DNA from: Geminicoccaceae bacterium
Lineage (GTDB): Bacteria; Pseudomonadota; Alphaproteobacteria; Geminicoccales; Geminicoccaceae
Assembly: GCA_028285265.1 (NCBI GenBank)
Contig: JANQPX010000079.1
Coordinates: forward strand, 109,006 to 173,005
Direction: 5' to 3'
Length of the DNA stretch: 64,000 bases
Shown: positions 36,816 to 56,613 of the stretch, in pieces
Layout: every line of letters starts with the position of its first letter
Position numbering within the stretch: position 1 is the first letter of the stretch
Notes under the pieces: model-generated
Told to the model about the DNA's origin: nothing
The model's input: the letters and a program-made list of their open reading frames with translations, nothing else
The model's database searches: none
Position numbers and translations under genes: made by a program

Positions 36816-37972
36816 ATTTTGGGCTCAGCGAAGAACAAGGGATGATCGTCTCGACCGTCAGGGAGTTCGTCGAGAACGAGATCTACCCTCACGAGACCAC
36901 GGTCGAACGCAGCGGCGAGGTTCCGACAGAGATTGCTGCGGGAATCAAGGATAAGACCAAGCAGCTCGGTTTCTATGCCTGCAATTTTCCGGAAAGCGTC
37001 GGTGGTGCCGGTCTTTCTCATCTCGATTTTGCGCTCGTGGAACGCGAACTTGGTCGGGGCTCCATGGCACTGACCCATTTCTTCGGCCGCCCGCAAAACA
37101 TCTTAATGGCTTGCAAGGGTGAGCAGATCGAACGCTATCTCTTGCCGGCGGTGCGTGGCGACAAAATGGACGCGCTGGCCATGACCGAACCGGAGGCAGG
37201 CTCGGATATCAGAAGTATGCGGTGCTCGGCAAAGCGCGATGGCGACGACTGGGTGCTCAACGGTACGAAACATTTCATCTCCGGTGCCGAGCATGCGGAC
37301 TTCGTGATCGTTTTTGTTGCCACAGGCGAAGAAGAGACGACCAAAGGCAAGAAGAAAAAGATCACGACCTTTTTGGTCGATCGCGGCGCGGCCGGGTTCA
37401 CCATCCGGGAAGGTTATGCGTCGGTTTCACATCGCGGCTACAAGAACATGATCTTGGAGTTCGATGGCTGTCGACTGCCCGGCACGCAGGTGTTGGGTGA
37501 GGTCGATGGTGGCTTTGATGTGATGAACGATTGGCTGTATGCGACCCGGATCACGGTCGCTGCCATGTGTGTCGGTCGAGCTCGTCGCTGTTTCGATCTT
37601 GCACTGAGTTATGCCGCAGATCGAAAACAGTTTGGGCAACAGATCGGTAAGTTCCAAGGCGTGAGTTTTCAGATCGCCGATATGGTGACGGAGATCGATG
37701 CGGCCGACTATCTGACATTGGCGGCTGCCTGGCGGCTCGATCAAGGCTTGCCAGCGAATCGGGAGATCGCCAGTGCCAAGGTTTTTGCATCAGAGATGTT
37801 GGCGCGGGTCACCGATGCCACGCTTCAGATCTTCGGTGGCATGGGCCTCATGGATGATTTTCCTGTGGAGCGCTTTTGGCGGGATGCGCGCGTCGAGCGT
37901 ATTTGGGACGGCACGTCGGAAATCCAGCGTCACATCATCAGCCGTGATCTTTTGCGTCCGCTAGGAGCCTAG
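36812..37972 (+). CDS. acyl-CoA dehydrogenase
   Basis: ALAMTEPEAGSD, FISGA and QIFGGMG motifs. ATGA overlap with the upstream gene. Confidence 0.88.
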   Translation: MNFGLSEEQGMIVSTVREFVENEIYPHETTVERSGEVPTEIAAGIKDKTKQLGFYACNFPESVGGAGLSHLDFALVERELGRGSMALTHFFGRPQNILMACKGEQIERYLLPAVRGDKMDALAMTEPEAGSDIRSMRCSAKRDGDDWVLNGTKHFISGAEHADFVIVFVATGEEETTKGKKKKITTFLVDRGAAGFTIREGYASVSHRGYKNMILEFDGCRLPGTQVLGEVDGGFDVMNDWLYATRITVAAMCVGRARRCFDLALSYAADRKQFGQQIGKFQGVSFQIADMVTEIDAADYLTLAAAWRLDQGLPANREIASAKVFASEMLARVTDATLQIFGGMGLMDDFPVERFWRDARVERIWDGTSEIQRHIISRDLLRPLGA

Positions 37973-37973
37973 C

Positions 37974-39986
37974 GTGCGTCTCGAGCGCTTGCTTCGCCCG
38001 CGATCGATCGCGGTTATCGGCGGTGGTGCTTGGTGTACGTCAGTGATCGAGCGTTGCCGGGACAGCGGTTTCAAGGGGCCCATATGGCCGGTGCATCAAC
38101 GACACGAGTCCGTCGGAGGTTTGCCTGCGTTTCCGAGCGTTGCGGCGCTGCCGGATGGTCCGGATGCGAGCTTCATCGGAGTTAATCGACGCACCACGAT
38201 CGATATCGTCCGAGCACTCAGCAAGCGAATGGCGGGCGGTGCCGTCTGCTTCGCCAGTGGCTTTAAGGAAGCCAAGGACGGTGAGGTTCTTCAACAAGAC
38301 TTGCTCAATGCCGCCGGCGATATGCCGGTCTTGGGGCCGAATTGCTACGGTTTCATCAACAATCTTGACGGTGCTGCGCTTTGGCCCGACGTCCATGGAT
38401 TGACGCCCGCTGCCACGGGGGTGGCGATTCTTGGGCAGTCCTCGAATGTCCTGCTCAATCTCACGATGCAGCGACGTGGTTTGCCCATCGCCTATCTCGT
38501 TGCTGCAGGCAATCAGGCACAGCAATCCATGGCGGCCATCGCTATGGACCTGCTTACCGATGCGCGCGTCACGGCCATCGGTCTGCATGTCGAGGGGTTC
38601 AGCGACCTGTCGTGCTTCGAGAGCTTGGCCGATCTCGCACGAAAGCACGGCAAAGCCATTGTCGTCTTGAAGTCGGGTCGATCGGCAGCAGCACAACGAG
38701 CCACCTTGTCTCATACGGCGTCTCTCGCCGGTAGCGATGCTGGTGCTGGCGCCTTGATTGCGCGACTGGGCATGATCCGTGCCGACAGCCTGACGCAATT
38801 CTTGTCGATTCTCGGGATCGCGCATCTCCATGGCCGACGGCATTTCCGGCGTATTGCGTCGCTCAGCTGTTCCGGTGGCGAGGCTGGCCTTATGGCCGAT
38901 GCAGCCCACGGACTGCCGCTCGAGTTTCCACCGCTCACTGATGACCAAAAGCAGAGTCTCAAGGCCCATCTCGGGGACGATGTGGCCTTAGCCAATCCGC
39001 TCGACTATCACACCGCAATCTGGCGAAATGCCGAAGCCCTGCAAGGCGTTTACGCCGCCATGACTGGGCCGGCCATCGATATGGCTTGCCTGGTGCTTGA
39101 CTATCCGCGCGGCGATCGTTGTGGCCATGGTGAGTGGGATATCGCGCTGGATGCGTTAATCGCTGCCAAGAGGGTGCGCCGTGATGCGTACGCGCTCGTG
39201 ACATCCTTGCCTGAGAATATGCCGGAACACGTTGCCGAACGGGCAATGGCTGCTGGGATTGTTCCGTTATTCGGCCTGGAGGACGCGCTCGCCAGCCTGG
39301 CGGCGACGTTGCAGACCTGTTCGCGTCCATCGGAGTCCGTCTTGCGAGGGCGAGGGATCGGCAGATCGGTCACCCTCTCCGAAGGCGAGGCCAAGACGGT
39401 GCTCAGCGGCTTCGGCCTGAACGTACCGAGATCAGCCCTGGCGCATTCCATCGAGGAGGTCTTGGATCGCGCGACCGATATCGGCTTTCCCGTCGCGCTC
39501 AAGGGTGAGGGCGCTGCCCATAAGTCCGAGCAGGGTTTGGTGCGGATTGGCCTTCCAGACGGGGCCAGTGTGCGCGAAGCGGCGTCGGCGATGCAGACGC
39601 GACGCTTCTTGGTGGAGAGCATGATAACGGACGTCGTCGCTGAACTCTTGATCGGTGTGGTTCACGATCCTGCCCATGGCTTTGTCCTGACGCTCGGCGC
39701 TGGCGGAACCATCACGGAGTTGCTGGAGGATCGCACGTCGCTCCTCGTGCCGTCGCCGCGCGAAGCGATTGAAGATGCTCTGTCCAGGCTTAAAATAGCG
39801 CGGCTGCTGCAGGGGTACCGCGGGCGACCAACGGTCGGCTCGCATCTCGTCCTTGATGCCGTTGACGCTATTCAGGCCTATGTTATCGCCCATGCCGAGA
39901 GCGTTATCGAAGTTGAAGTCAATCCACTCCTTTTGACCCCGAACATGGCGATAGCCGTCGATGCCCTGATTGTGAGGACAGAATGA
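37974..39986 (+). CDS. ADP-forming acyl-CoA synthetase (acetate--CoA ligase family: CoA-binding, ligase-CoA and ATP-grasp domains)
   Basis: SIAVIGGGAW CoA-binding start, LGPNCYG, and a C-terminal ATP-grasp region (LSEGEAKTVLSGFGLNVP...GFPVALKG). GTG start lies 2 nt after the upstream stop. Confidence 0.8.
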   Translation: MRLERLLRPRSIAVIGGGAWCTSVIERCRDSGFKGPIWPVHQRHESVGGLPAFPSVAALPDGPDASFIGVNRRTTIDIVRALSKRMAGGAVCFASGFKEAKDGEVLQQDLLNAAGDMPVLGPNCYGFINNLDGAALWPDVHGLTPAATGVAILGQSSNVLLNLTMQRRGLPIAYLVAAGNQAQQSMAAIAMDLLTDARVTAIGLHVEGFSDLSCFESLADLARKHGKAIVVLKSGRSAAAQRATLSHTASLAGSDAGAGALIARLGMIRADSLTQFLSILGIAHLHGRRHFRRIASLSCSGGEAGLMADAAHGLPLEFPPLTDDQKQSLKAHLGDDVALANPLDYHTAIWRNAEALQGVYAAMTGPAIDMACLVLDYPRGDRCGHGEWDIALDALIAAKRVRRDAYALVTSLPENMPEHVAERAMAAGIVPLFGLEDALASLAATLQTCSRPSESVLRGRGIGRSVTLSEGEAKTVLSGFGLNVPRSALAHSIEEVLDRATDIGFPVALKGEGAAHKSEQGLVRIGLPDGASVREAASAMQTRRFLVESMITDVVAELLIGVVHDPAHGFVLTLGAGGTITELLEDRTSLLVPSPREAIEDALSRLKIARLLQGYRGRPTVGSHLVLDAVDAIQAYVIAHAESVIEVEVNPLLLTPNMAIAVDALIVRTE

Positions 39987-40777
39987 CAATGTACCCGGCC
40001 GAAGGTCCGATCACGTGCCGTGTTGACGGCGCAGTCCTTGAGGTCACGCTCGATCGGCCGAAGGCGAATGCGATCGATCTCGCCACCAGCCGTATCATGG
40101 GGGATGTCTTTGCCGCATTTCGTGATGATGACCTGCGCGTCGCCTTGCTCCGTGCAGAAGGCGACAAGTTCTTTTGTCCCGGTTGGGATCTCAAAGCTGC
40201 GGCCGAGGGCGATGCGGTCGATGGCGACTATGGCGTTGGCGGGTTTGGCGGGCTTCAGGAACTGCGTGATCTCAACAAGCCGGTCATTGTTGCGGTGAAT
40301 GGTATCTGCTGTGGCGGCGGTCTTGAGCTGGCCCTTTCCGCGGACATCATCCTTGCTTCGGATAACGCCAGCTTTGCGTTACCGGAGATTCGATCGGGTA
40401 CGGTCGCCGATGCAGCGAGCATCAAGCTGCCAAAACGGATCCCCTATCACATCGCAATGGAGATGCTGTTGACGGGTCGTTGGCTCGACGCCGACGAAGC
40501 CCATCGCTGGGGCTTCGTCAACCAGATTTGCGATCAGGGTGTATTGCTCGATAACGCGCGGGCCCTGGCCCAAACGCTCGCTGATGGACCGCCGCTTGTC
40601 TATGCGGCCATTAAAGAAATTGTCCGTGATGCGGAGGACAGTAAGTTCCAGGACTGTATGAACCGCATCACCAAACGACAACTGAAGACGGTGGATGTCC
40701 TCTACGGCTCTGAGGACAATCTCGAAGGAGCACGCGCTTTTGCTGAAAAGCGCGACCCGGTGTGGAAGGGACGTTAG
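39983..40777 (+). CDS. enoyl-CoA hydratase/isomerase (crotonase) family, carnitinyl-CoA dehydratase-like by context
   Basis: FCPGWDLK, VNGICCGGGLELALSADI and LPEIRSG motifs. ATGA overlap with the upstream gene. Confidence 0.85.
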   Translation: MTMYPAEGPITCRVDGAVLEVTLDRPKANAIDLATSRIMGDVFAAFRDDDLRVALLRAEGDKFFCPGWDLKAAAEGDAVDGDYGVGGFGGLQELRDLNKPVIVAVNGICCGGGLELALSADIILASDNASFALPEIRSGTVADAASIKLPKRIPYHIAMEMLLTGRWLDADEAHRWGFVNQICDQGVLLDNARALAQTLADGPPLVYAAIKEIVRDAEDSKFQDCMNRITKRQLKTVDVLYGSEDNLEGARAFAEKRDPVWKGR

Positions 40778-41311: not shown

Positions 41312-41941
41312 TTGCCCAGCGCAATCTTGCTGTCTTATCGCGCAGACACTGATCTTGTCGCAGGAGTGGATGTATTGCCGTCGCTTCAGGACCTTGCCGA
41401 TGGCGTAAACCGGCTGAACAACCATCTTGGCCAGGCGCTCGCCTGGCTGACACTCGGCATGGTTTTGCTGCAATTCGCGATCGTGGTGATGCGCTATATC
41501 TTCGGTATCGGCTCCGTGATGGCGCAGGAGGCGATGGTCTACATGCATGCCACCGCATTTCTCCTTGGGGCGTCCTATACGCTTTTGGAGAACGGCCATG
41601 TTCGCTGCGACATCTTCTATCGTGATGCACAGCCCAAGAGGCGGGCGCTTATCGATCTGGTTGGTGCCTTTGTCTTTCTCTTGCCGGTATGTGCGATGAT
41701 CCTTTGGGTGTCCTTGCCCTATGTGCTCAATGCTTGGGCGGTCTTTGAGGGCTCACCCGAAGGACGTTTGGGAATCCCGGCAGTGTTTCTCCTGAAAACG
41801 GCGATGCCGATCTGTGCTGTCCTCTTGGGTCTGCAAGGCCTGTCGATGGCCTTGTCGGCCAGCCTCCGGCTCGGCGGATGGGAGGGGCTTTCTGACCTTG
41901 AAGATTTTGTTGGCGACTCCGAACAGGAGCGCGGCCGGTGA
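41312..41941 (+). CDS. TRAP transporter small permease subunit (DctQ family)
   Basis: Four TM helices with the DctQ-like layout (AWLTLGMVLLQFAIVVMRY). Directly coupled to the large permease through a GTGA overlap. Start uncertain; a TTG at 41375 with an AGGAG 8 nt upstream is an alternative. Confidence 0.75.
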   Translation: MPSAILLSYRADTDLVAGVDVLPSLQDLADGVNRLNNHLGQALAWLTLGMVLLQFAIVVMRYIFGIGSVMAQEAMVYMHATAFLLGASYTLLENGHVRCDIFYRDAQPKRRALIDLVGAFVFLLPVCAMILWVSLPYVLNAWAVFEGSPEGRLGIPAVFLLKTAMPICAVLLGLQGLSMALSASLRLGGWEGLSDLEDFVGDSEQERGR

Positions 41942-43509
41942 GCGAGATCGTCGGATCCCTCGATCTTGTGATGGTCTTTGCCCTTTGCCTGCTCATCCTG
42001 TTCGGTTACCCCGTCGCCTTCACCCTTGCTGGCACGGCACTTCTATTTGCCCTTGTCGGTTATCTCGTCGGCATGTTCGACCTCACGTTTCTTGCGCTTT
42101 TCCCGAGCCGCATTTACGGCGTGATGACGAACGACGTCCTAATCGCGGTTCCGCTCTTCATCTTTATGGGGGTGATGCTCGAACGCTCCAAGATTGCCGA
42201 CGAGCTTCTGGACAGCATGGGAGCGCTCTTTGGCCGTCTTCATGGCGGCCTAGGCATCTCAGTTTTGTTGGTCGGCGCCCTGCTGGCAGCATCCACGGGC
42301 ATTGTCGGCGCAACTGTGGTCACGATGGGGCTTCTCTCGCTCCCGACCATGCTGAAGCGTGGCTATGATCCGTCGCTCGCCTGTGGCTCGATCGCTGCTG
42401 CCGGGACCCTTGGTCAGATCATTCCACCGTCGATCGTCCTCGTCGTCCTTGGCGATCAGATTTCCAATGCTCATCAAGAGGCTGAGCGAGCTCTCGGGAA
42501 TTGGGCGCCAGACCCCGTCTCGGTCGGTCATCTTTTTGCGGGCGCGCTTTTTCCGGGGCTCGTGTTGGTGGGACTTTATGTCGTGTATCTGGCCACCTTG
42601 GCCTTCCTCCGTCCCGAGCACGCGCCGCCGATTGCCAGCAGCGATGTCGGCGGTGAGGTGAGGGTGAGCCGAGTCGCAAAGGCTCTCGTGGCACCGTTGG
42701 TGTTGATTCTCGCGGTCTTGGGGTCGATTCTAACAGGCGTTGCCACACCGACGGAGGCAGCAAGCGTCGGTGCGATCGGCGCCATTTTGCTCGCCGGCGA
42801 TCGTCTTGTTCCGGCAAAGCCTCTCCCTCTGTATCTCACGGTTCTGAGCGTTATCGGCCTCATTCTACTCAGCGCCCATCTCGATCTGCGGGTTGGGCGA
42901 CATGAGATCTCCGATCTTGACCGATATGGCATGGTGGCCGCCACCATGATGTGCCTCATCATTGCTTATGGCCTGTTCGTTGCGCTAATCCGCGCCCATA
43001 AGCGTGGCATCCTTAGCCAGGTCATGCAGAGCACGCTGAAGATCACTGCCATGGTTTTTATCATCGTCATCGGCGCTCAATTGTTTTCTCTGGTCTTTCG
43101 AGGATTCGGTGGGGATGAAACGGTCCATGCCCTATTGAGTGACCTGCCTGGGGGCGCCGTCGGTGCGATGATCGTGGTGATGGCGTTGATGTTTGTCCTC
43201 GGCTTCTTTTTAGACTTCATCGAGATCGCCTTTGTCGTCGTTCCCATCATTGGGCCGGTCCTTTTACAGCTCGGCCTTGATCCCGTTTGGTTAGGGGTGA
43301 TGATTGCGATGAATCTTCAGACCTCGTTCCTGACGCCGCCATTCGGCTTCGCGTTGTTCTATTTGCGTGGGGTTGCTCCGTCGTCGATCACGACGATGCA
43401 GATCTACCGGGGCGCTTTGCCATTTGTGCTCATTCAGCTGCTGATGCTGGTGTGCCTATCCTTGTTCCCGGGCCTGGCCACTTGGCTGCCGACATGGATC
43501 TTCGGTTAG
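41938..43509 (+). CDS. TRAP transporter large permease subunit (DctM family)
   Basis: 523-aa polytopic permease with typical DctM blocks (PLFIFMGVMLE, GTLGQIIPPS, TPPFGFALFYLRGV). Confidence 0.88.
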   Translation: MSEIVGSLDLVMVFALCLLILFGYPVAFTLAGTALLFALVGYLVGMFDLTFLALFPSRIYGVMTNDVLIAVPLFIFMGVMLERSKIADELLDSMGALFGRLHGGLGISVLLVGALLAASTGIVGATVVTMGLLSLPTMLKRGYDPSLACGSIAAAGTLGQIIPPSIVLVVLGDQISNAHQEAERALGNWAPDPVSVGHLFAGALFPGLVLVGLYVVYLATLAFLRPEHAPPIASSDVGGEVRVSRVAKALVAPLVLILAVLGSILTGVATPTEAASVGAIGAILLAGDRLVPAKPLPLYLTVLSVIGLILLSAHLDLRVGRHEISDLDRYGMVAATMMCLIIAYGLFVALIRAHKRGILSQVMQSTLKITAMVFIIVIGAQLFSLVFRGFGGDETVHALLSDLPGGAVGAMIVVMALMFVLGFFLDFIEIAFVVVPIIGPVLLQLGLDPVWLGVMIAMNLQTSFLTPPFGFALFYLRGVAPSSITTMQIYRGALPFVLIQLLMLVCLSLFPGLATWLPTWIFG

Positions 43510-44660: not shown

Positions 44661-45845
44661 TTAGAAGAATTGGCCGACGACCTTCTCGTCCTTCCGCAGG
44701 CGTTCATATTGATCCTGAATGAAGCTGAACGTTTTGGCTGGATATTTGACCCGAGACGCGCGCACCTCGTTGACGCCCATATCGGCCAAATCGAGGGCCA
44801 TCCGTATCGCCATATATTGCGGCGTCCCGAGCTCGCAGCGTATGCAAAGCGCGGCAAGGGCTCGTTTGTCCATATTGTAGAGAAGCCGCTTGGTTTTTTT
44901 GCTATCGATTTTTGCCAGGGTGGCAAGCGCGGCCTCAAACTTGCCAACATTGCCATCTCGAAGGAAGCGAAGGATATCGAGGGGTTCGAGCGCGCCCTTT
45001 GTCATGCGCGCTTGCATGGCCGCTGCGGTTGCTTGCTCAACACCGCCGCGGGTGGCGATGGCTTTGGCAGCTTGGCTTTTCATCGCTTTCGCAATTTGGC
45101 GCGCTTCGATCGGTTCGATCGATCGGCTCTTGACCAGATCCCACTCGAGCGCATCGCCGATACCGTCAATCAGACGTTCGACCACGACGGCCGGTAAATC
45201 GGGCAACTTAATGAGCTGGGCCTGAATGCTCTTGACGCCGCTGAAGTCGTCGGCGAGGCGACAGAGCCCCTGCTCCGAGAATTGCGCACCGTCATTGGTA
45301 AGGAGGCGAAGGATGGCATCGATGTTTTCGGTATCGATCAAGGCATCACTGACCACATCGCTGATCTCCGCCCTGCCGGCGACCGCATAAGCGTGATACA
45401 TGGCCTGCGCCTGGATGATGCCGACGAGTTCGGGGTCCTCCAGGACCCTGCACTTCTCAAGGATTGGTTGTGCGATGTTGATGTCATCATTGGCGAGATC
45501 GATCGCCAGCGTCTTCGGTAGATTGGGGCTTCCTGCGACGGTTTCGGCAAGCGCCTTTCGAACAACCGCTTCGACATCTTTTGCGAGATGAAAGAGGATG
45601 GTGTCGGCGAATTCTTTGGAACTCGTGGCGGCAAAGGCGTCGTATTGGCGCCCGAATTTGGCGGCGAAGGCCGAGCGTGTGGCGGTCGACGGGTTGGACC
45701 GCAAGATTTCCAGATCTGCCGGTGTGATCTTTTCGTCCCGCGTCGCCGTCGAATCCGTGGTGTTCGCGTCTCGCTTCCGGTTGGATCGGCTTGCGTTGCG
45801 TGGTGGACGGCTCTGATGATGCGCCTCGGAGGCGACAGCAGCCAT
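44661..45845 (-). CDS. DUF2336 domain-containing protein (helical-repeat protein)
   Basis: Repeat-rich helical protein. VRKALAETVAGSPNLPKTLAIDLANDDINIAQPILEKCRVLEDPELVGI matches my recollection of DUF2336. Confidence 0.6.
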   Translation of the reverse strand: MAAVASEAHHQSRPPRNASRSNRKRDANTTDSTATRDEKITPADLEILRSNPSTATRSAFAAKFGRQYDAFAATSSKEFADTILFHLAKDVEAVVRKALAETVAGSPNLPKTLAIDLANDDINIAQPILEKCRVLEDPELVGIIQAQAMYHAYAVAGRAEISDVVSDALIDTENIDAILRLLTNDGAQFSEQGLCRLADDFSGVKSIQAQLIKLPDLPAVVVERLIDGIGDALEWDLVKSRSIEPIEARQIAKAMKSQAAKAIATRGGVEQATAAAMQARMTKGALEPLDILRFLRDGNVGKFEAALATLAKIDSKKTKRLLYNMDKRALAALCIRCELGTPQYMAIRMALDLADMGVNEVRASRVKYPAKTFSFIQDQYERLRKDEKVVGQFF

Positions 45846-48768: not shown

Positions 48769-49650
48769 ATGTCAATGGCCACCAACCCACCGATGAAAGG
48801 GCGCGCGGCAGCGCTCAAATCCTGGTTCGATGTTCAGATCGACAAACCGTCACACATCGTCGACCTTTTGATCGAGGAACGGGCCGGGCGGCTAATCCAG
48901 CATCCGTTGCTTTGGCAGGCGGTTCGCCAAGTCTTCTATCCGCTCTTGAAGTATGAAGATGCCATACGACTGGCGGATGCCGTTGCCAATCTCTCTGGAT
49001 TTGAGGCCTTCAGCTTGGTGAGCCGAGAGCTTGCCATCAAAACGGAGGTGAGGGGCCTCAACCATGTTCCTTCAAGGGGGTTCGTCTTCGTCGTCGCAAA
49101 CCATCCGACGGGTATCGCCGATGGCATCGCGGTATTCGACGGCCTGGCACCCCTAAGGCCGGATCTTTGCTTCATGGCCAACCGCGACGCCATCCGTGTG
49201 GCCAAAGGGCTCTCGGATATCATCATTCCGGTGGACTGGCGCCCGGCCTATCGCACAACAGCAAAGACCAGGGAGACGGTGCAGGGTCTAACAAGAGCCG
49301 CACGTGACCAGCGTCCTGTGGTCATCTTTCCGTCCGGTCGCCTCGCCTATATGACCATGAATGGGCTTCGCGAACGCCCCTGGCTATCGACCACGGTTTC
49401 GCTCGCCCGGCGCTATGGAGCGCCGATCATTCCCCTTCGAATTAGCAGCCGAAACTCCTGGCTCTACTACAGCCTTGCCCAGGTCAGCAACGAGCTGCGT
49501 GATATCACCGTGTTTAACGAGCTCCTCAACAAGCGCTATGCGCGGGTCGGATTGACCTTTGGCGCGCCGATCGATCCATCGGCGCTTCCGGACGACCCGG
49601 ATGTCGCAACAGACCAGCTTCAGCATCTGGTCGAATGCGAGATGGCCTGA
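48769..49650 (+). CDS. lysophospholipid/PlsC-like acyltransferase family protein
   Basis: FVFVVANHPTGIADG acyltransferase motif, and VVIFPSGRL. Confidence 0.6.
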   Translation: MSMATNPPMKGRAAALKSWFDVQIDKPSHIVDLLIEERAGRLIQHPLLWQAVRQVFYPLLKYEDAIRLADAVANLSGFEAFSLVSRELAIKTEVRGLNHVPSRGFVFVVANHPTGIADGIAVFDGLAPLRPDLCFMANRDAIRVAKGLSDIIIPVDWRPAYRTTAKTRETVQGLTRAARDQRPVVIFPSGRLAYMTMNGLRERPWLSTTVSLARRYGAPIIPLRISSRNSWLYYSLAQVSNELRDITVFNELLNKRYARVGLTFGAPIDPSALPDDPDVATDQLQHLVECEMA

Positions 49651-50008
49651 TCTAAAAAAAATCATGAAGCGTGACGTGGTTCACACTTTTTTAGGTTAAC
49701 CGATGGCATGATGCTCGTGGATAGAGCGTCGCTGATCGGCGTAAGACAAGGCATTTTAAGCCTAGCCGTTCGACTTTGATCCGCTGAATTTAAGCCAGTG
49801 CTTTTGAAAGTAACGAGAGCCGTGTCGGCGACCTTTGGCCGGGCGGCGGCAGTTTTCAAAACCGGGTACGGCGCGGTGCGGGACCATGTCCCGCACCGTG
49901 ACCGGTTAGCCTTCCCCCTCCAATCCAGTCTTGGCAAACCGCCGACCATACAAGGGCCCATGAGGTGGCCGAAACTGATCTATCTGACATCGCCATCTGG
50001 CTGATGCA

Positions 50009-51574
50009 TCATGCATAGCGGAAGGGGTGATATTGGTAGAGCCAGGTTTCGGTGAGCGTTTTCTCGCCCAATTGCAGATAAAGTCGTAAGTTGACGGGTT
50101 CATTCCCCTCGACCTCAAGGTCGAAAAACGCGCGCCAGTTTTTGGTACCCACGACCTGAAGCGCATAGTCATTGCTGATGGTGCCGGTCGATGTGCTAAT
50201 GACCGGCTTGACCTCATCAAGCTTCTCAACGTCCTTAAGGGGACCGCCCTCAAAATCGATCACGAACTTCTTGATCCCTTCGGGCCGCGGTTGGCCTGGA
50301 ACGCCACCATTACCGAGGCGGGTGTGGATCACCCGGGCCACGGATTCCGGAGGATAGGGCTCCTCGGCATTCCAAAAGAGGCGGTAATTGAAGGTCCATT
50401 CCGACCCTGCTTTCACGTTCTCTTCCGGCAGCCAGTACATCACGATGTTGTCATGGATCTCATCGTCGGTCGGGATCTCGACTAGCTGAACCGCGCCTTT
50501 CCCCCAATCGTCCGTGGGCTCGATCCAAACACTTGGACGGCGCTCGTAAAAGACTCCGTCATCCTCATAATTGTGGAATGCACGGTCCCGCTGCATCAGG
50601 CCGAAGCCGCGAGGATTGTCGTCAACGAAGCTATTGGTCATGACCGTCGTTGGGTTGTTCAGCGGTCGCCAAAGCCGCTCACCTGACCCCGTCCACATAG
50701 CGAGCCCATCGCTATCATGGATTTCCGGGCGCCAGTCTCTCGCTTGATGGCGGTTGTGTTCGCCAAACCAGAACATCGAGGTCAACGGGGCGATCCCCAA
50801 GCGTTGAATGTCCTTTCGGGCGAAGAACCGGGTCTCGATATCCTGCTGCACGGTGCCGTCATTCACATTGGACATGCGAATGGCACCGGTGACGCTCGGA
50901 CCGTCGACGAGCGCGTAGATCGTGAACTCTTTACTGTTGGCCGTTCCTGGCTGCAGCCAAAAGGCCGTAAACCGAGGAAATTCCTCCGGCGTCGAGAGGG
51001 CTGTGTCGATCGCAATCGCCCGTGCCGAAAGGCCGTATTGATCGAGCTCACCCGAACTTCGGAAATAGGCACCGCCTAAAAGTGCCAGCCAGTCCGTCGT
51101 CGCATCCTGACCATCCTGGAGGCGAAACCCGGCAAAACCGAGATCATCTGGGAGCTTTTCGTCAAGGCCCGTATCGCCAAAGGTAAAGTAATCGGGATGG
51201 TAGATAACCCGACGCGCCTGGCCCTGTTCCAGCCAGTGGATTTTCACCGGCGCTTGAAAGTAGCGTCCGAGATGAAACAGCTGCACCGGGAAGTTGACAT
51301 TGGTACCTTCGCCGAGCCCAAGTTCGCGTTTGAAGACAATCTGCTGAAAGGCATCATAGTCAATCGTCTGCAATATATCGGGGTGGCGAATTTCAGGGTC
51401 CTGATAGTCCGCCTGGGCAAGCGCTTTAGCTTCAGCGATGAGTTCATCGAAGCTAAAAGGGGCTGGCTCGCCGAGTTCGACCTTGGCCCGATCGGCAAAG
51501 GCCGCTTTGGCCCCAAGGCCCGACGCTGCACCGATCACGGCAGCTGTCTCCAAAAAGTGGCGTCTGTTCAGCAT
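50009..51574 (-). CDS. opgD: periplasmic glucan biosynthesis protein, MdoG/OpgG-OpgD family, Tat-exported
   Basis: Twin-arginine leader MLNRRHFLETAAVIGAASGLGAKAAFA, and family blocks (FRSSGELDQYGLSARAIAIDT, DNPRGFGLMQRDR). No opgH is adjacent. Confidence 0.8.
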   Translation of the reverse strand: MLNRRHFLETAAVIGAASGLGAKAAFADRAKVELGEPAPFSFDELIAEAKALAQADYQDPEIRHPDILQTIDYDAFQQIVFKRELGLGEGTNVNFPVQLFHLGRYFQAPVKIHWLEQGQARRVIYHPDYFTFGDTGLDEKLPDDLGFAGFRLQDGQDATTDWLALLGGAYFRSSGELDQYGLSARAIAIDTALSTPEEFPRFTAFWLQPGTANSKEFTIYALVDGPSVTGAIRMSNVNDGTVQQDIETRFFARKDIQRLGIAPLTSMFWFGEHNRHQARDWRPEIHDSDGLAMWTGSGERLWRPLNNPTTVMTNSFVDDNPRGFGLMQRDRAFHNYEDDGVFYERRPSVWIEPTDDWGKGAVQLVEIPTDDEIHDNIVMYWLPEENVKAGSEWTFNYRLFWNAEEPYPPESVARVIHTRLGNGGVPGQPRPEGIKKFVIDFEGGPLKDVEKLDEVKPVISTSTGTISNDYALQVVGTKNWRAFFDLEVEGNEPVNLRLYLQLGEKTLTETWLYQYHPFRYA

Positions 51575-51703
51575 CGATTTGGTGTATCCCGATAATTGAG
51601 AAGAACCCTCGAGGACGAGGGGTTGGGCAACAAGCGCCTCAACAATAGATAAAATGCCCTGAGGTCAAGCCTGATGAGGGCTGAACCTGAATTTCTGGAA
51701 CGA

Positions 51704-51735
51704 GAAAAGCGGGCTAGGAGACCAGCCCGCTTTTC
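51704..51735 (-). terminator. intrinsic (bidirectional-type) terminator downstream of the TAXI-OmpA gene
   Basis: GAAAAGCGGGCT (51704-51715), 8-nt loop, AGCCCGCTTTTC (51724-51735). This is a perfect 12-bp stem with A-tract and T-tract arms, 52 nt past the stop at 51787. Confidence 0.7.
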
Positions 51736-51786
51736 ACTCGTGGCAGGGTTTAGGGCGTTACCAGTAACGCCGCAGCCGAGCGCTCA

Positions 51787-53379
51787 TCAGATCGAGGCTC
51801 TTGCTTTCCATGCCGGTACATCGTCATCAGCCCCCGGCGATGCTGCTTGCGCAGGCTCGCCCGGCGTCTCGATAACTTTGGGTGTGACCCTGATCTCAAC
51901 CCGTCGGTTTTGCGGCTGATATTCCCGTCCATCGTCAATGGCAGGTGTATCGGCACCATGTGTTTCCAGAGTGATGTCATGTCCAGCGACGCCGAAAGTG
52001 TCCTTGAGGACGTTCATGACTGCTGTGGCGCGAACCTCGGCGAGATAGGCGTTGTAGGCTGGATCGCCGGAACGATCAGCATGGCCACTGATCTCGATAT
52101 TGGCGTTGGTGAGGTTGTCGGCAAACGCGCTGACTTCAGCCAGTTCTTGAACGCCGACCCCACTGACGGCCTTCTCATTCAAACCGAAATAGACAACGAA
52201 GGTCTTGCCGTTGTCATCGCGCGGCAAACCTGGTGACGGTGCTGGGCTCCAGGCCGCGGTCGCTGATGAATCCAATGTTGCTGCGATCTGGCTTACCCTG
52301 GCTTTGAGCGCACCGTTGGGGTCGTAGGCTGCCGATCCGGCGCCGCGAACATCGTCGGCGAGAGCGACTTCGAGATTGGCGTCAGGTCCGAGAAGACCCA
52401 CCTCTTGGAAATAGCGAAGAGCGCCGGGGTGGAGTGGCATTGGCACGCCGACCAAGGCCCGATCCAACGATGTCTCGTACATCGCGTCATGGATCGTACG
52501 AAGGAAGTCGAGATTTTCGAAAACCGACTTTGTCACCTGGTAGACGACCTCATCGTCAACATCAGAGCGGGCCACCAGGAGGTTCGACTTTGCCACGGTT
52601 TGGATGTCTTCCGTCTGACCGGGATAGGTCGCGGCTGGTATGACATAAGGAGTCCAAAGACCCAGGCCGCCGTCGGCTTGAGCGATCTGATCATCGGTAA
52701 ACGACAGGAGCGTATGGCGTCCATCAGAACCGGCTAGCAGTTTCTCGACATGCGGGGCAGGTGGGCGTATCGGCGTGCTCATCGCCATGATTTCACCCCG
52801 TGCCAGCGCTTCTGAGCTTTGCAAGTAGTTGAGGTGAGTCAGACTAAAGCTGCTGTCGACATCAATGCCCAAATGCGAGAGCAAGAGCCGATTGGACTCA
52901 ATCGGTCCCGGGCCTTCCACGCCCATGGAGACGGGCATGCCCTCCAACTCATCAAGGTCGGCGATGGTGCCGGACTTCTCATAAGTCTTATCGATCACGA
53001 AATGATCGGCATCCCGCCACAGCATGGCGACGGCGCGTAAGGAGTCGTCGGGAGGTTCGCCGGCAAAGGTGCCTGTTCCGGTCCTTGCGAAGTGACCGAA
53101 CATCGCCTGGAGGATAGCGAACTGCGCCTGGTCGTTTTGCAACATGCGCACGTTTTGGACAAAGCCTTGGCTTTCGACCGCGGAGAGGTCCATTTTGTAT
53201 TGTGGCATGAGTTTGACTTTGGCGAGCGATGAAATGCCCACGCCGACGGCAAAGGACTTGCCGGATGTCCGACCTGTCGCGAGCGTATATCCGTCCGCTG
53301 CGGCTAAGGTCGACTGACTTACGAACGCCATGGCAAGCATGGCCGTCAACATTCCGTTACCTAACCTACTCAATGGCAT
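51787..53379 (-). CDS. TAXI-family TRAP solute-binding protein fused to a C-terminal OmpA-like peptidoglycan-binding domain
   Basis: Signal peptide. TAXI blocks (IPAATYPGQTEDIQTV, VVYQVTKSVFENL, PLHPGALRYFQEVGLL). After a linker of about 60 aa comes an OmpA_C-like domain (ISGHADRSGDPAYNAYLAEVRATAV, QPQNRRVEIRV). Confidence 0.8.
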   Translation of the reverse strand: MPLSRLGNGMLTAMLAMAFVSQSTLAAADGYTLATGRTSGKSFAVGVGISSLAKVKLMPQYKMDLSAVESQGFVQNVRMLQNDQAQFAILQAMFGHFARTGTGTFAGEPPDDSLRAVAMLWRDADHFVIDKTYEKSGTIADLDELEGMPVSMGVEGPGPIESNRLLLSHLGIDVDSSFSLTHLNYLQSSEALARGEIMAMSTPIRPPAPHVEKLLAGSDGRHTLLSFTDDQIAQADGGLGLWTPYVIPAATYPGQTEDIQTVAKSNLLVARSDVDDEVVYQVTKSVFENLDFLRTIHDAMYETSLDRALVGVPMPLHPGALRYFQEVGLLGPDANLEVALADDVRGAGSAAYDPNGALKARVSQIAATLDSSATAAWSPAPSPGLPRDDNGKTFVVYFGLNEKAVSGVGVQELAEVSAFADNLTNANIEISGHADRSGDPAYNAYLAEVRATAVMNVLKDTFGVAGHDITLETHGADTPAIDDGREYQPQNRRVEIRVTPKVIETPGEPAQAASPGADDDVPAWKARASI

Positions 53380-53548
53380 CTCTAAGGCCCCCTATTGCGT
53401 TGCCGGTCGTGCCCAAATGCGCTCGGCCCCGTCGTCGTTGATCGATCCTGCATCGACCTTTTGCAGCCTTGCCGCAGTTTATCCTGCAAGCTTGTCGTCT
53501 CTGGGTTGCAAAACTTTCTGCCAGATCTACTTCTCAGAAAAACAAAAA

Positions 53549-53578
53549 AATATCCGCAAAATTTGCCATGAATGTCAA
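53549..53578 (-). promoter_or_regulatory. candidate sigma70-type promoter for the TAXI-OmpA gene
   Basis: On the minus strand: TTGACA (53578-53573), an 18-nt spacer, then GATATT (53554-49). Motif match only. Confidence 0.25.
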
Positions 53579-53837
53579 GCGATCCTTGAGTTTTCCACAG
53601 GAAATCGCAGCAAATGCGCAGCAAGGCTGCCCAATAAGACACAAATCGATTGGTTCGGGACTTTAAGCGGTGAAAGTCACGGGGTGGAAACAATCTTGAC
53701 GCGTTTGAAAATGCCGCCTTGATTAATTGACGAAATGACCTCGTCTACATCAGCAACTCTTGATCAGAACCTCCTGCCGCATCTCGAGATTTTCGTCCTA
53801 GAGCACGACGTTGTTGTCATGCTGAGGTGGGACACGA

Positions 53838-55094
53838 TCAAAGCATGGCGCGCCGCCGCCAATGGGAGGGGGGAGTCCACCAATTGCCTTGAGGTTGGCG
53901 TTGAAGCGTCTCTGCCGGTGGGACAGTGGCTTCCGCGTCAACATCATCGTCATCAGGAGCGGCTGGAAGTAAGGGGCCACCAATACCCGGACGACCGGCG
54001 GTCGCAACATCTTCATCAGGATAGTGTTCGGTCGGAAATTTCAGCGGTGTGTCATCGTCTCCTGGAAGCGGCGTTCCGGCGGGGGTCGAGGGGGTATTGC
54101 TCGCAGCTGGCGTCGGGATCAGCCCGGTCTCTTGGTAATAGCGGAGGGCACCGGGGTGCAGGGGGAGAACCACGCCGGCGAGTGCCGTTTCCAGTGAGAG
54201 ATTGGCCAGGATCGGATCGACATGTTCAAGATAGGCCAGATTTTCAAAGACACTCTTGGTCAGCGCATAGACGACATCGTCACCGATATCCGTCCGAACC
54301 ACCAAGAGGTTGGAAAGCGCTATCGTGGCAATGTCCTCATTTTGTCCGGGATAGGTGTCGACGGGGATGGTGAAGGGAGTCCAGAGCCAGTGATTACCAT
54401 TCACACGCGCGAGCTGGTCTTCATCGACATCGAGAATGCGAAGCGCCAAGTCGGAGGCTTCGAAGACCTCATTGAACATCGGCTCTGGCGCCATCGCCAT
54501 CACGCTCAACGCATCGATGTCGCCTCGTTTGATCGCCTGGATCTCGTCCCCAATCCGCACCGGGGCGAGATCGGCAGGCTGACCGGCATCCATGCCAAGG
54601 TCGGCAAACAAAAGGCGATTCGCATCGATCATGCCTGTCGAGGCATCGCCAAAGAACATCCTCGGGTCGGTCAAGGCAGCGACATCGTCGATGGTACCCG
54701 TTTTGACATCGTCGGCGCGAATGATGAGATGAAGGGCATCCAGCCAAAGTCCTGCCACAGCGCGAAAGCCCGTTGCTGGTGCGTTGCCATGAAACGAGCC
54801 GATTCCCAGTCTCGCGGTGTGACCGATGGCCGATGGCAAAATGGCGAGATCGGCATCGCCATTGCGCAGCAAACCCACCGTTTCAATTGGCCCGTCGGAG
54901 GAGAGCGTTTTGACGTCGATACCGTTGTTCGGCAGGAGCTCCATCTTGATCAATGAAGACAGCGCAACGCCAGCGTTGTGGGCAGGAGCATTAGCGTGAC
55001 CGTTGGCCAAGACTAACATTTCTCCGGCTGATGCGGCACTTGCGCTTATCAGGACCCATAAGCCTAGCATGCGCCGAGAGATCGCGACGATCAT
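53838..55094 (-). CDS. TAXI-family TRAP solute-binding protein paralogue with a Pro/Asp-rich C-terminal tail
   Basis: Signal peptide. TAXI blocks (IPVDTYPGQNEDIATI, VVYALTKSVFENL, PLHPGALRYYQETGLI). These are followed by about 100 aa of low-complexity P/D/T-rich sequence. Confidence 0.8.
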   Translation of the reverse strand: MIVAISRRMLGLWVLISASAASAGEMLVLANGHANAPAHNAGVALSSLIKMELLPNNGIDVKTLSSDGPIETVGLLRNGDADLAILPSAIGHTARLGIGSFHGNAPATGFRAVAGLWLDALHLIIRADDVKTGTIDDVAALTDPRMFFGDASTGMIDANRLLFADLGMDAGQPADLAPVRIGDEIQAIKRGDIDALSVMAMAPEPMFNEVFEASDLALRILDVDEDQLARVNGNHWLWTPFTIPVDTYPGQNEDIATIALSNLLVVRTDIGDDVVYALTKSVFENLAYLEHVDPILANLSLETALAGVVLPLHPGALRYYQETGLIPTPAASNTPSTPAGTPLPGDDDTPLKFPTEHYPDEDVATAGRPGIGGPLLPAAPDDDDVDAEATVPPAETLQRQPQGNWWTPPSHWRRRAML

Positions 55095-55592
55095 AATTTG
55101 TCTCCCGATACGCCCTGGATAAGACCATCACATGCGCTGATGGGGCTCTCATCCCGTTAAAACGTAGGGTTGTTGATTGGTTGTGGATTAAACTACCTGA
55201 AGGGGTAGTTACTGTGGTCGCTGAGATATTGTCAATATCAACTATAAAATAAATATATTTCGAATTTTATTTGATTTTTAATTGAGAACGCATGCTGGTA
55301 GCGAGCCGTTACGACAGTAGCCAGGAGGGTCGGTGCATCGTGATCCCGTATCGCTCTATCACCACTCTCGAGTCGGTAATGCGATTCTTTACCAGTCTTT
55401 CCAAGAGGTTCCGCGCCAGGCTCAAGACGAGATTGTTGCGATGACGGCCACTCATCGTCCTGCCTGTTGCTGTGATGCTTCAGCAATAAATAAAATTTTA
55501 TATAAATCCAACTTTACGATGGCATGATTTGGGTATTCAGGTGTTCACATGTGGATGTTGCCTAAAGATCGTTAGCGCTGCTGGGAGTAGGA

Positions 55593-55805
55593 ATGATGCT
55601 TTTGCAGATGGCGGTTCGTTCAGGTTGTCGTATTCGACATAGAGATTGGCCGCCTTATCATTACGCGGAGATGCGGAAGACTGGAGATGGGGAAGTGCGG
55701 CTTTGCCGGATTATCCCGCAAAGCGATTTGCCACCGATTGAGGTCCAGATCGATTCGCTTTCCGATGATACCAATTGGAAAATTCTCGATTTGCCGCCGG
55801 AGTGA
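55593..55805 (+). CDS. small hypothetical protein (70 aa), tentatively DUF2829-like
   Basis: AVRSGCRIRHRDW near the N-terminus and DDTNWKIL near the C-terminus recall the DUF2829 pattern (from memory, unverified). GC3 counted by hand is 37 of 70 codons. It overlaps an equally unconvincing antisense ORF. Confidence 0.35.
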   Translation: MMLLQMAVRSGCRIRHRDWPPYHYAEMRKTGDGEVRLCRIIPQSDLPPIEVQIDSLSDDTNWKILDLPPE

Positions 55806-56327
55806 TCCGCGCCTGCGGGTCGTAACGGAAGGGGGGCAGACCTGATCATGGGGGATGACGAGCTGATGAGAGGGGGATCTCATCGGCTCATCATGTCGGG
55901 TGCATGTGACGACTGGTCTCTCATCAATCAGGTCTAAAACCGACCGCTGCCATCTTTTGATCGCGGGCCGCATCATCGGCAGCTCGACCGGTCATTGTCG
56001 ACGTGCTCTTTGGTGTTGAACAGTCCCTCGGACAGGAGGGGTGCAAGCGTCCTCCGCTCTCGGCTTCTTTACCGGCGGCGATGCTGATGAGCGATCTGAG
56101 CTAGGCGTACTGGCAGTGGTTTGGGCCAAGCTTTGCACTGACGTCGTTTTGACCGGCATCGAACAGAGTCGCTGACGAACTCTTCAATCTCTTTTCCTTG
56201 GGTCTCCAGCAAACCCCTTCATCCCGTTCGATGATCGACGGCCAACGTCGTGACAATTCGGGCTGGACCCTTGGCATGCTCAGAATTCGTCCTACCCTCA
56301 ACAAAGAACGACAATAAAAGAGGCGAG

Positions 56328-56465
56328 ATGGTTGTGGAGGCAGTGTTGTGCGACACCGAACCCGCCGCTGACCGCTCCGGTGTCTTGATCGGCATGGCGG
56401 CTTGTGCGCTAAGCGGCGGCATTATGGGCTTTATCGCTGGATTCCTTGTCGGGGTTTGGTTTTAG
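56328..56465 (+). CDS. small membrane peptide (45 aa) with a glycine-zipper TM helix
   Basis: ATG is preceded by AAGAGG. The C-terminal TM GVLIGMAACALSGGIMGFIAGFLVGVWF contains a GxxxGxxxGxxxG motif. Confidence 0.4.
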   Translation: MVVEAVLCDTEPAADRSGVLIGMAACALSGGIMGFIAGFLVGVWF

Positions 56466-56613
56466 GCTCTTTGTCTGGATCGACGGTCCGGGTCTAACGA
56501 GCTCGGCTCCTATGGTTTAGGGCGTTTGCCGCCTTTCAGGCCTTAACCTTTGATTTACCCTGTTCTGGCAAAGTGGTCAGATCGAGCTGTTCGTTTCGGG
56601 ATGACCATCTGCT

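Follow-up and report, generated by a model that had tools for sequence, protein, structure and literature searches.

What a solute-binding protein does once it is fixed to the cell wall is the question raised by a gene in a 64-kb stretch of a Geminicoccaceae genome (contig JANQPX010000079.1, positions 109,006 to 173,005; the whole stretch is called the window, and all coordinates are given in window numbering). The gene encodes a binding protein of the TRAP-associated extracytoplasmic immunogenic (TAXI) type, the least understood branch of tripartite ATP-independent periplasmic (TRAP) transport, fused to an OmpA-like peptidoglycan-binding domain. The protein is read here, with a probability of roughly 0.45, as a wall-anchored receptor of the periplasm, independent of a permease, which would bind a small anionic ligand and work in an envelope module with OpgD. 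A wall-tethered receptor is preferred to a normal transporter subunit because the fusion gene was never found beside a transporter gene and is paired with the gene of a periplasmic glucan enzyme. This functional assignment draws only on sequence and synteny in metagenome-assembled genomes (MAGs) of uncultured bacteria.

Architecture of the fusion protein

The gene and its parts are located as follows; confidence values are predicted local distance difference test scores (pLDDT) of an AlphaFold2 model.

51787..53379, minus strand: TAXI-OmpA fusion gene, ATG start, 530 aa plus stop; one open reading frame (ORF) with both Pfam domains above their gathering cut-offs
53296..53379, minus strand: putative signal peptide, aa 1-28 (MPLSRLGNGMLTAMLAMAFVSQSTLAAA followed by DG), Sec type without lipobox cysteine, by direct reading of the sequence
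52396..53295, minus strand: TAXI Venus-flytrap domain, aa 29-328, from NMT1_3 and TIGR02122 matches, AlphaFold2 pLDDT >90 and the Foldseek match to 9IBP
52300..52395, minus strand: post-TAXI segment, aa 329-360, LGPDANLEVALADDVRxAxxAAYDPNGALKA, from identity within the family and pLDDT 80-97
52207..52299, minus strand: disordered spacer of variable length, aa 361-391, pLDDT <50 for aa 362-387
51880..52206, minus strand: OmpA-like (Pal-type) domain, aa 392-500, from PF00691, phmmer matches and secondary structure of the model
52075-52077, minus strand: D435, predicted diaminopimelate-binding Asp, by motif
52030-52032, minus strand: R450, predicted diaminopimelate-binding Arg, by motif
51790..51879, minus strand: acidic, Pro-rich disordered tail, aa 501-530, ending in a conserved P-x-W-K-[KR]-R-A-S-I motif
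51790-51813, minus strand: this C-terminal motif, P-x-W-K-[KR]-R-A-S-I, aa 523-530, from alignment conservation

In the TAXI part, Pfam model NMT1_3 (PF16868) matches residues 33-328 with E=1e-78 and 265 bits (cut-off 27), and NCBIfam model TIGR02122 (TRAP_TAXI) scores 214 bits (cut-off 84.35). The OmpA part is matched by PF00691 at residues 410-486 (E=5.8e-12, 46.3 bits, cut-off 27.2) and, at residues 396-498, by several NCBIfam models for OmpA-like proteins, including YiaD, Pal, YfiB, TssL and MotB. Every equivalog OmpA-like model stayed under its cut-off, and NCBIfam holds no model specific for a TAXI-OmpA family. The two-domain architecture proposed in the first-pass annotation is thus borne out, and the peptides it had cited, PLHPGALRYFQEVGLL and GHADRSGDPAYNAYLAEVRA...NRRVEIRV, are both present in the protein.

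The N-terminus, read by eye, has the shape of a Sec signal, with a basic n-region, a hydrophobic core and an A-x-A site; within this region the model shows low pLDDT and a helix at residues 10-18. The AlphaFold2 prediction, which used a 91-sequence alignment, reached a mean pLDDT of 85 and a predicted template modelling score (pTM) of 0.65. Modelling was confident for the TAXI domain and onwards to about residue 360 (pLDDT >90 over residues 30-350) as well as for a unit at residues 388-504, and disorder was predicted at residues 362-387 and 505-530. The pTM of 0.65 suggests that the TAXI and OmpA domains have no fixed mutual orientation. Residues 329-360 are conserved, with an invariant G356, and do not form a simple linker; the first ~12 residues after the TAXI domain resemble the C-terminus of unfused relatives.

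Conservation of the fusion

A search of 5.8 billion proteins yielded 57 protein clusters that carry both Pfam domains, at 98% to 45% identity. They stem from NCBI, JGI, ENA and Logan assemblies, the named ones are Geminicoccaceae, Geminicoccales or Alphaproteobacteria MAGs, and their database label is merely 'TAXI family TRAP transporter solute-binding subunit'. When 19 diverse members were aligned, the reading frame was unbroken across the linker and was kept despite the variable length of the spacer. Mean pairwise identity among 53 members was 0.80 in the TAXI domain, 0.67 in the OmpA domain and 0.68 at residues 328-360; it was 0.20 in the spacer (residues 361-391) and 0.28 in most of the tail, the last eight residues of which reached 0.66. 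Because 57 clusters share both domains down to 45% identity, both domains are conserved and a single frame runs through the variable spacer, the TAXI-OmpA fusion is not an assembly artefact. The frameshift in the linker that the first-pass annotation had raised as a possible source of error is not seen in the assembled sequence, in which the frame runs on through this region.

The chance that a frameshift or a chimeric assembly has joined a TAXI gene with a separate OmpA-family gene is accordingly negligible. A few database entries do split into TAXI-only and OmpA-only ORFs (P0058 and P0294, P0045, P0057, P0174), as an artefact would predict, but they break within domains and not at the domain boundary, whereas the 57 independent clusters hold one frame and conserve both domains together with the extreme C-terminus. 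The split ORFs were also considered as a natural two-gene state and rejected, as their breaks are frameshifts inside domains. In these ENA entries either the TAXI or the OmpA domain is interrupted; they probably reflect indel errors in long-read assembly or are pseudogenes, and could mislead counts of the architecture.

With one genome taken per GTDB species, the core family was found in at least five species representatives, all of them Geminicoccales MAGs and one with two copies; these figures are a lower bound since the scan used two exact peptide patterns. In an exhaustive HMMER search of 1.84 billion representatives the core family forms one 50% cluster. A Steroidobacteraceae locus (L012) was rejected as an independent fusion, as its protein consists of an outer-membrane barrel, a Pro-rich stretch and an OmpA domain and has no TAXI domain. 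A search with the C-terminal module alone, limited by its word index to 390 candidates, returned only fragments and generic OmpA proteins and gave no information on the origin of the anchor or on other binding-protein families that carry the module.

The OmpA-like domain

The C-terminal unit has a beta-alpha-beta-alpha-beta-beta topology in the model (strands 391-397, 426-433, 468-474 and 493-500; helices 408-421 and 440-460; pLDDT 86-96). This Pal-type topology and the PF00691 score above cut-off settle whether the region has the OmpA fold, a point on which the first-pass annotation had made its reading depend. In phmmer searches it matches 27 solved OmpA-like domains, including Pal, OprF and AbOmpA structures. 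The GHAD...EVRA of the fusion protein aligns with GHAD...ERRA of Pal and GHTD...ERRA of OprF (GHxD...RA motif). D435, R450 and residues R492-E495 are invariant in the 19 diverse members. Asp271 and Arg286 of Acinetobacter baumannii OmpA (AbOmpA), with which D435 and R450 were equated by motif, bind the diaminopimelate of peptidoglycan (PMC5974059). The OmpA-like domain is predicted from these residues to be a non-covalent anchor to peptidoglycan diaminopimelate. The protein is not a Pal, since it lacks a lipobox, with no Cys in the signal region, and reaches only 44.8 bits with the Pal equivalog TIGR02802 (cut-off 125).

The ligand pocket

The TAXI domain of the model superposes on Vibrio cholerae VCA0144 (9IBP) with a template modelling (TM) score of 0.93, a root-mean-square deviation of 1.9 Å and 43% identity in Foldseek; the TM scores with VcGluP, TtGluBP and 4DDD were 0.76-0.82. 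VCA0144 is also the closest solved relative in phmmer (E=2e-77). The first-pass annotation had suggested structure prediction as a check of the ligand cleft; the model superposes on the open, ligand-free VCA0144 structure with a bilobal and unobstructed fold. The 12 ligand-contact positions of VcGluP (PMC11574862) were carried over to the family by MAFFT alignment, which gave the following predicted pockets.

Fusion family: R37 K41 S42 F43 F73 Q91 W121 D123 T202 P203 I204 R205, with every residue kept in at least 48 of 53 members
Unfused proteins closest to the family, and VCA0144: S T Y Y S Q W N T P A G, in 38 of 38 relatives
TAXI paralogue encoded upstream of the fusion: variable across its six orthologues, with Pro in 6/6 in place of the otherwise universal Gln (Q91)

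The fusion family differs from the unfused relatives at eight of the 12 positions and has three added basic residues; the changes include S to R37, T to K41, Y to S42, S to F73, N to D123, A to I204 and G to R205. Columns that are conserved in both groups and yet differ between them number 27 of 303 overall; seven of the 12 pocket positions are of this kind compared with 20 of the 291 others (Fisher p=1.2e-5). Being near-invariant in the family, different from that of the unfused relatives and richer by three basic side chains, the pocket has been rebuilt under strong constraint. This suggests that the fusion protein keeps the ability to bind a ligand, and that the ligand is altered and probably more anionic.

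Absence of a neighbouring permease

The closest unfused relatives include P0079 (Pelagibius) and P0070, and the gene of each is directly followed by that of a fused permease of the DctM family (721-740 aa). VCA0144 is likewise paired with the permease VCA0146 (PMC12718363). Contexts of the homologues were viewed over about 10 kb on either side. No permease flanks the core fusion in L001/6, L002/8, L003, L004/5, L007, L009, L010, L020 and L021, and none adjoins the other TAXI-OmpA subfamilies in L013-L017, L022 and L023, so that the count stands at 0 of 13 distinct fusion contexts from three subfamilies. Within the window no fused TRAP permease was found among the ORFs of at least 470 aa. The observation in the first-pass annotation that no TRAP membrane component adjoins the gene thus applies to the window and extends to all 13 contexts.

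The only TRAP membrane genes of the window are a split DctQ/DctM pair at 41312-43509 on the plus strand, 8.3 kb away. This DctM is of the split TIGR00786 type (307 bits), reaches only 48 bits with TRAP_fused (cut-off 321), and is long, with 523 aa and an insertion of ~45 aa. The pair ends a carnitine/acyl-CoA-type operon on the strand opposite to the fusion (context 34489-40777), with genes for BKACE, 3-hydroxyacyl-CoA dehydrogenase-thioesterase, acyl-CoA dehydrogenase, ADP-forming CoA ligase and a protein like crotonobetainyl-CoA hydratase. No DctP-type binding-protein gene was found in the screened ORFs of the window. As a cognate permease of the fusion protein the DctQ/DctM pair was rejected, because it is of the split type, belongs to an unrelated operon and does not keep its proximity, which is missing around L001; it survives only as a minor variant of the transporter alternative weighed below.

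A conserved gene order with OpgD

The neighbouring genes and signals are the following.

53838..55094, minus strand: TAXI paralogue, 418 aa, with signal peptide, TAXI domain and a Pro/Asp-rich tail of ~95 aa, without OmpA domain
53549..53578, minus strand: promoter-like TTGACA-18-GATATT, a consensus match inside the spacer between paralogue and fusion gene
51704..51735, minus strand: intrinsic terminator of the fusion gene, made up of a GC-rich stem of 14 bp and the U tract UUUUCUCGUU after it
50009..51574, minus strand: OpgD-like protein of the MdoG family (glycoside hydrolase family 186, GH186), PF04349 with E=5.5e-190, 633 bits and 478 of 478 profile positions

The order TAXI paralogue, TAXI-OmpA, MdoG/OpgD is conserved on one strand, and the flanks are rearranged: a pair of ILVD and acyltransferase genes lies downstream in some genomes, upstream in L004, and is absent around L001. 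The MdoG/OpgD gene is syntenic with the fusion in L001-L009 and L021 and remains linked to it at identities as low as about 55%. The most divergent lineage (45-56% identity) has two fusions in a row, TAXI-OmpA (P0060 type) and TAXI-OmpA (P0056 type), followed by MdoG; as MdoG still lies downstream there, the linkage with OpgD runs deep. The tandem fusions of this kind (L020 3296-6440 and L021 3-4819; 567 and 566 aa) have TAXI domains that are 60% identical and lie upstream of MdoG, and little of the family pocket signature is left in the upstream copy (P0060 type).

OpgD and OpgG are GH186 beta-1,2-glucanases or transglycosylases acting on osmoregulated periplasmic glucans, which bear phosphoglycerol, succinate and phosphoethanolamine groups (PMC10514313, PMC11228985), and OpgG is suspected to require an unidentified periplasmic cofactor (PMC10514313). 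The OpgD-like protein of the window begins with a twin-arginine RRHFL sequence; the TAT_signal model matches with E=7e-4 and 19.8 bits, below its cut-off of 22.7. The first-pass annotation was right to call the neighbourhood envelope-related, with a TAXI paralogue upstream and this MdoG-family protein downstream. It had also given the fusion gene a terminator of its own and a candidate promoter. The former is confirmed by the hairpin and U tract, the 101-nt region 51690-51790 folding with -43 kcal/mol (z=-4.2 against shuffles). The latter, at 53578-53549 on the minus strand, is a consensus match within a nucleotide block conserved in L004 and L007. A search of 49600-57000 against Rfam found no riboswitch or small RNA, the sole match being sub-threshold and by chance, on the terminator.

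The TAXI domain of the paralogue is 42% identical to that of the fusion protein. In a neighbour-joining tree of TAXI domains the paralogue forms a separate, longer-branched clade, and its gene is syntenic in all Geminicoccaceae loci. The possibility that it is a P0060 orthologue that lost its OmpA domain was rejected, since P0060 fell into the fusion clade in 100 of 100 bootstraps and with the paralogues in none (0/100); branching among the fusion, unfused and paralogue clades was weakly supported (19/100). In four of six orthologues the paralogue ends in W-[RK]-x-R-A-[TM]-[LI], resembling the W-K-K-R-A-S-I end of the fusion protein; in L002 and L009 this motif is missing or disrupted by a frameshift. 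These similar endings may be a shared C-terminal recognition peptide, possibly a PDZ/protease site or a partner-binding site. The tail of the paralogue (53838-54122, minus strand; also in L001, L004 and L007) has conserved YP[DN]xDVA and GGPLL motifs.

A second fusion copy, 60% identical, occurs in L010 (4585-6360) of MAG PBSalp20. It adjoins genes for a DUF2336/SpbR-like protein, a fatty-acid desaturase and a patatin; no paralogue lies upstream, and the contig stops before the downstream gene. A DUF2336/SpbR-family gene is also present in the window at 44661-45845.

Proposed function and alternatives

In the proposed role the fusion protein would be exported by Sec to the periplasm, where its OmpA/Pal-type domain would hold it non-covalently on peptidoglycan diaminopimelate, and the flexible spacer of ~30 residues would give the TAXI domain a limited radius of action. 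Ordinary TAXI-TRAP binding proteins resembling V. cholerae VCA0144 would be the ancestors of the family, which would have lost the linkage to a TRAP permease and had its pocket rebuilt with the three added basic residues. Immobilised on the wall, the receptor would capture a small anionic ligand without a permease, as part of an envelope module formed with the variable-pocket TAXI paralogue and the OpgD-type beta-1,2-glucan enzyme. The sensory, scaffolding or substrate-capture role put forward in the first-pass annotation fits the data, since none of the contexts examined places a permease beside the fusion, in contrast to its closest unfused relatives. However, the argument behind it, that a tethered receptor cannot shuttle to a permease, was overstated. 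Anchored binding proteins function in TAXI and ABC systems, and because a disordered spacer of 25-50 residues separates the domains, tethering alone does not preclude delivery to an inner-membrane partner.

Several points weigh against a permease-independent receptor linked to glucan physiology. Tethered binding proteins serve transporters in other systems, and a partner permease encoded farther away than the ~10 kb viewed around each homologue would have escaped the comparison of contexts. VcGluP, the source of the pocket positions, is only ~25% identical, so that single assignments, notably 200-203, may be wrong, and VCA0144 was crystallised ligand-free, its ligand being unknown (PMC12718363). 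As to the link with OpgD, opgD is probably transcribed separately from the fusion gene, which has a terminator of its own; OpgD does not adjoin the other TAXI-OmpA subfamilies; and the synteny could partly reflect inheritance, as all OpgD-linked loci come from one order.

As the main alternative, the protein might still be a transporter subunit, delivering its ligand from the wall to an inner-membrane permease encoded elsewhere, with the anchor merely positioning the receptor or preventing its loss; this is considered rather unlikely. Candidate partners are a fused TRAP QM permease, a non-TRAP carrier of the kind used in TAXI-GltS, and the orphan split DctQ/DctM of the window. A transporter subunit would explain why the TAXI domain is fully intact, closest to transporter-associated proteins and under strong constraint in its pocket; the 25-50-residue spacer could bridge part of the gap between peptidoglycan and inner membrane, orphan TRAP binding proteins are known, as are non-TRAP partners (PMC12344293), and none of the screened ORFs of the window encodes a DctP for the DctQ/DctM pair. 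The record of 0/13 distinct loci beside a permease, when the nearest unfused relatives have one, argues against it. TAXI systems are moreover reported to use fused permeases invariably (PMC12344293), whereas the DctM of the window is of the split type and sits in a carnitine/acyl-CoA operon on the other strand, with no such proximity around L001.

A mainly structural tether or scaffold, in which the TAXI fold would serve as a protein-protein module for the paralogue, OpgD or a membrane protein in the manner of Pal-TolB or YfiB-YfiR, is improbable. OmpA-like domains often anchor envelope complexes, the pocket positions of the paralogue vary among orthologues, and the conserved segment 329-360 together with the WKKRASI motif shared with the paralogue tail suggests peptide-mediated contacts. 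Against this, the pocket of the fusion protein is near-invariant (at least 48/53) and functional divergence is concentrated there, as expected of a ligand site, and the model superposes on the open ligand-free TAXI structure with an unobstructed bilobal fold.

A bolder and speculative extension of the wall-anchored receptor, regarded as quite unlikely in this specific form, is that peptidoglycan-anchored TAXI proteins are a transporter-independent receptor class with periplasmic-enzyme partners, and that the cationic pocket of the core family binds an anionic group (succinyl or phosphoglycerol) of osmoregulated periplasmic glucans or a related metabolite. If so, the core family would hold glucans, or the substrate or product of the OpgD-type enzyme, at the cell wall; it is even conceivable that the fusion protein is the unidentified periplasmic cofactor that OpgG-family enzymes have been postulated to need (PMC10514313), and the P0142-like subfamily described below would do an analogous job beside cytochrome P460.

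Other TAXI-OmpA subfamilies

The exhaustive HMMER search also yielded other proteins with TAXI and OmpA domains, confirmed by Pfam (P0142, P0143, P0161, P0150 and P0135). The P0142-like subfamily comprises 13 clusters and has its own conserved interdomain motif, no tail, a different pocket and an intact GHxD...RA motif; one member shares a 1.28-Mb Geminicoccaceae contig with a member of the core family. Since subfamilies with different pockets carry it, the peptidoglycan anchor has been joined to TAXI domains of several specificities. In L013/L014, L022 and L023 the gene directly downstream of the P0142-like fusion, in convergent orientation, encodes cytochrome P460; in L017 the P460 gene is one gene further away, beside cytochrome c'. 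A DoxX-like or Pfam-less membrane protein is often encoded upstream of P0142-like fusions, and L013/L014 hold two divergent copies. P0135 (L015 8001-9935, L016 6245-8179), from JGI metagenomes, is a 644-aa protein with TAXI, OmpA and C-terminal Calx-beta domains, and its gene neighbours are SoxYZ, BenE and an SBP_bac_1 gene.

Comparison with known systems

The closest known system is VCA0144/VCA0146 (9IBP; PMC12718363), to which the fusion protein is closest in sequence and fold and with which it shares many invariant residues and, by the look of its N-terminus, probably a signal peptide. VCA0144 and its unfused homologues are, however, single-domain proteins of ~340 aa encoded directly upstream of a fused QM permease, whereas the fusion protein has in addition the conserved segment, spacer, OmpA domain and tail, and differs at 8/12 predicted pocket positions. 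BP0403 of Bordetella pertussis (TAXI-GltS) resembles it in having a TAXI domain with extra domains and no link to a TRAP permease, and demonstrates that TAXI domains can work outside canonical TRAP systems (PMC12344293). BP0403 is a lipoprotein with N-terminal globular and helical dimerisation domains and is translationally coupled to the GltS symporter (PMC12344293); the fusion protein, in contrast, carries its extra domain, an OmpA-like one, at the C-terminus and has neither a lipobox nor a linked carrier gene. Lipoprotein TAXI binding proteins are discussed in the same study (PMC12344293).

Pal, YiaD and the C-terminal domains of OprF and AbOmpA belong to the same Pfam family as the anchor and share its topology, its GHxD...R and NRRVE motifs and the diaminopimelate-binding Asp/Arg pair. 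These known members sit on an outer-membrane barrel, a lipid anchor or an inner-membrane helix, whereas in the fusion the domain is attached to a soluble binding-protein domain without membrane attachment. Roden and colleagues reportedly described, in 2023, TAXI binding proteins anchored to the cytoplasmic membrane beside their transporter (cited in PMC12718363). There, as in the fusion, the receptor is immobilised, but the fusion anchor is predicted to act on peptidoglycan and no transporter gene is nearby. An unconfirmed lead is the NCBI product name 'Phosphate ABC transporter substrate-binding/OmpA family protein' (PstS-like plus OmpA), which would be an analogous fusion from a different branch of the binding-protein superfamily.

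Literature searches for TAXI plus OmpA, PstS plus OmpA and binding protein plus OmpA-like domain found no paper on such fusions, the matches being proteome lists. TAXI binding proteins are described as invariably two-lobed single modules, without mention of OmpA (PMC12344293, PMC11574862), and a specialist paper of 2025 treats one extra TAXI domain as unprecedented (PMC12344293). Precomputed Pfam annotations show the combination of TAXI and OmpA, so that it is already catalogued by implication, but it is neither named nor studied. The fusion is of note to specialists in TRAP transport and in the cell envelope. If the proposed function is correct, evolution has put a TAXI fold to use at the cell wall, which would be a testable case of a periplasmic binding protein outside transport. 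Its consistent pairing with an OpgD-type glucanase, like the pairing of cytochrome P460 with a sister subfamily, gives a starting point for asking how periplasmic enzymes might be supplied or organised, and the fusion may bear on the question of OpgG/OpgD partners.

Other genes near the module

Two small ORFs lie on the plus strand in an AT-richer gap of 1.5 kb upstream of the paralogue, at 55593-55805 (70 aa) and 56250-56465 (71 aa). Both are conserved in L001, L002, L004 and L007, with 60-73% and 55-72% identity and blastp E values down to 1e-40 and 1e-23, respectively, and neither has a Pfam match. The 71-aa product ends in a glycine-zipper-like transmembrane helix (GGIMGFIAGFLVGVWF). Divergent from the TAXI genes, a predicted two-transmembrane-helix protein of 287 aa without Pfam or NCBIfam match is encoded at 56614-57477 (plus strand), and its gene occupies a corresponding position in four of six examined Geminicoccales genomes (L001/6, L002/8, L007 and the window). 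On the other side of the module, the acyltransferase gene at 48769-49650 (plus strand) beside opgD encodes a protein like the N-terminal half of OlsF (ornithine-lipid synthase) and like GlsA (glycine-lipid), with E=3e-38 and a score below cut-off; it would add an envelope-lipid gene to the neighbourhood.

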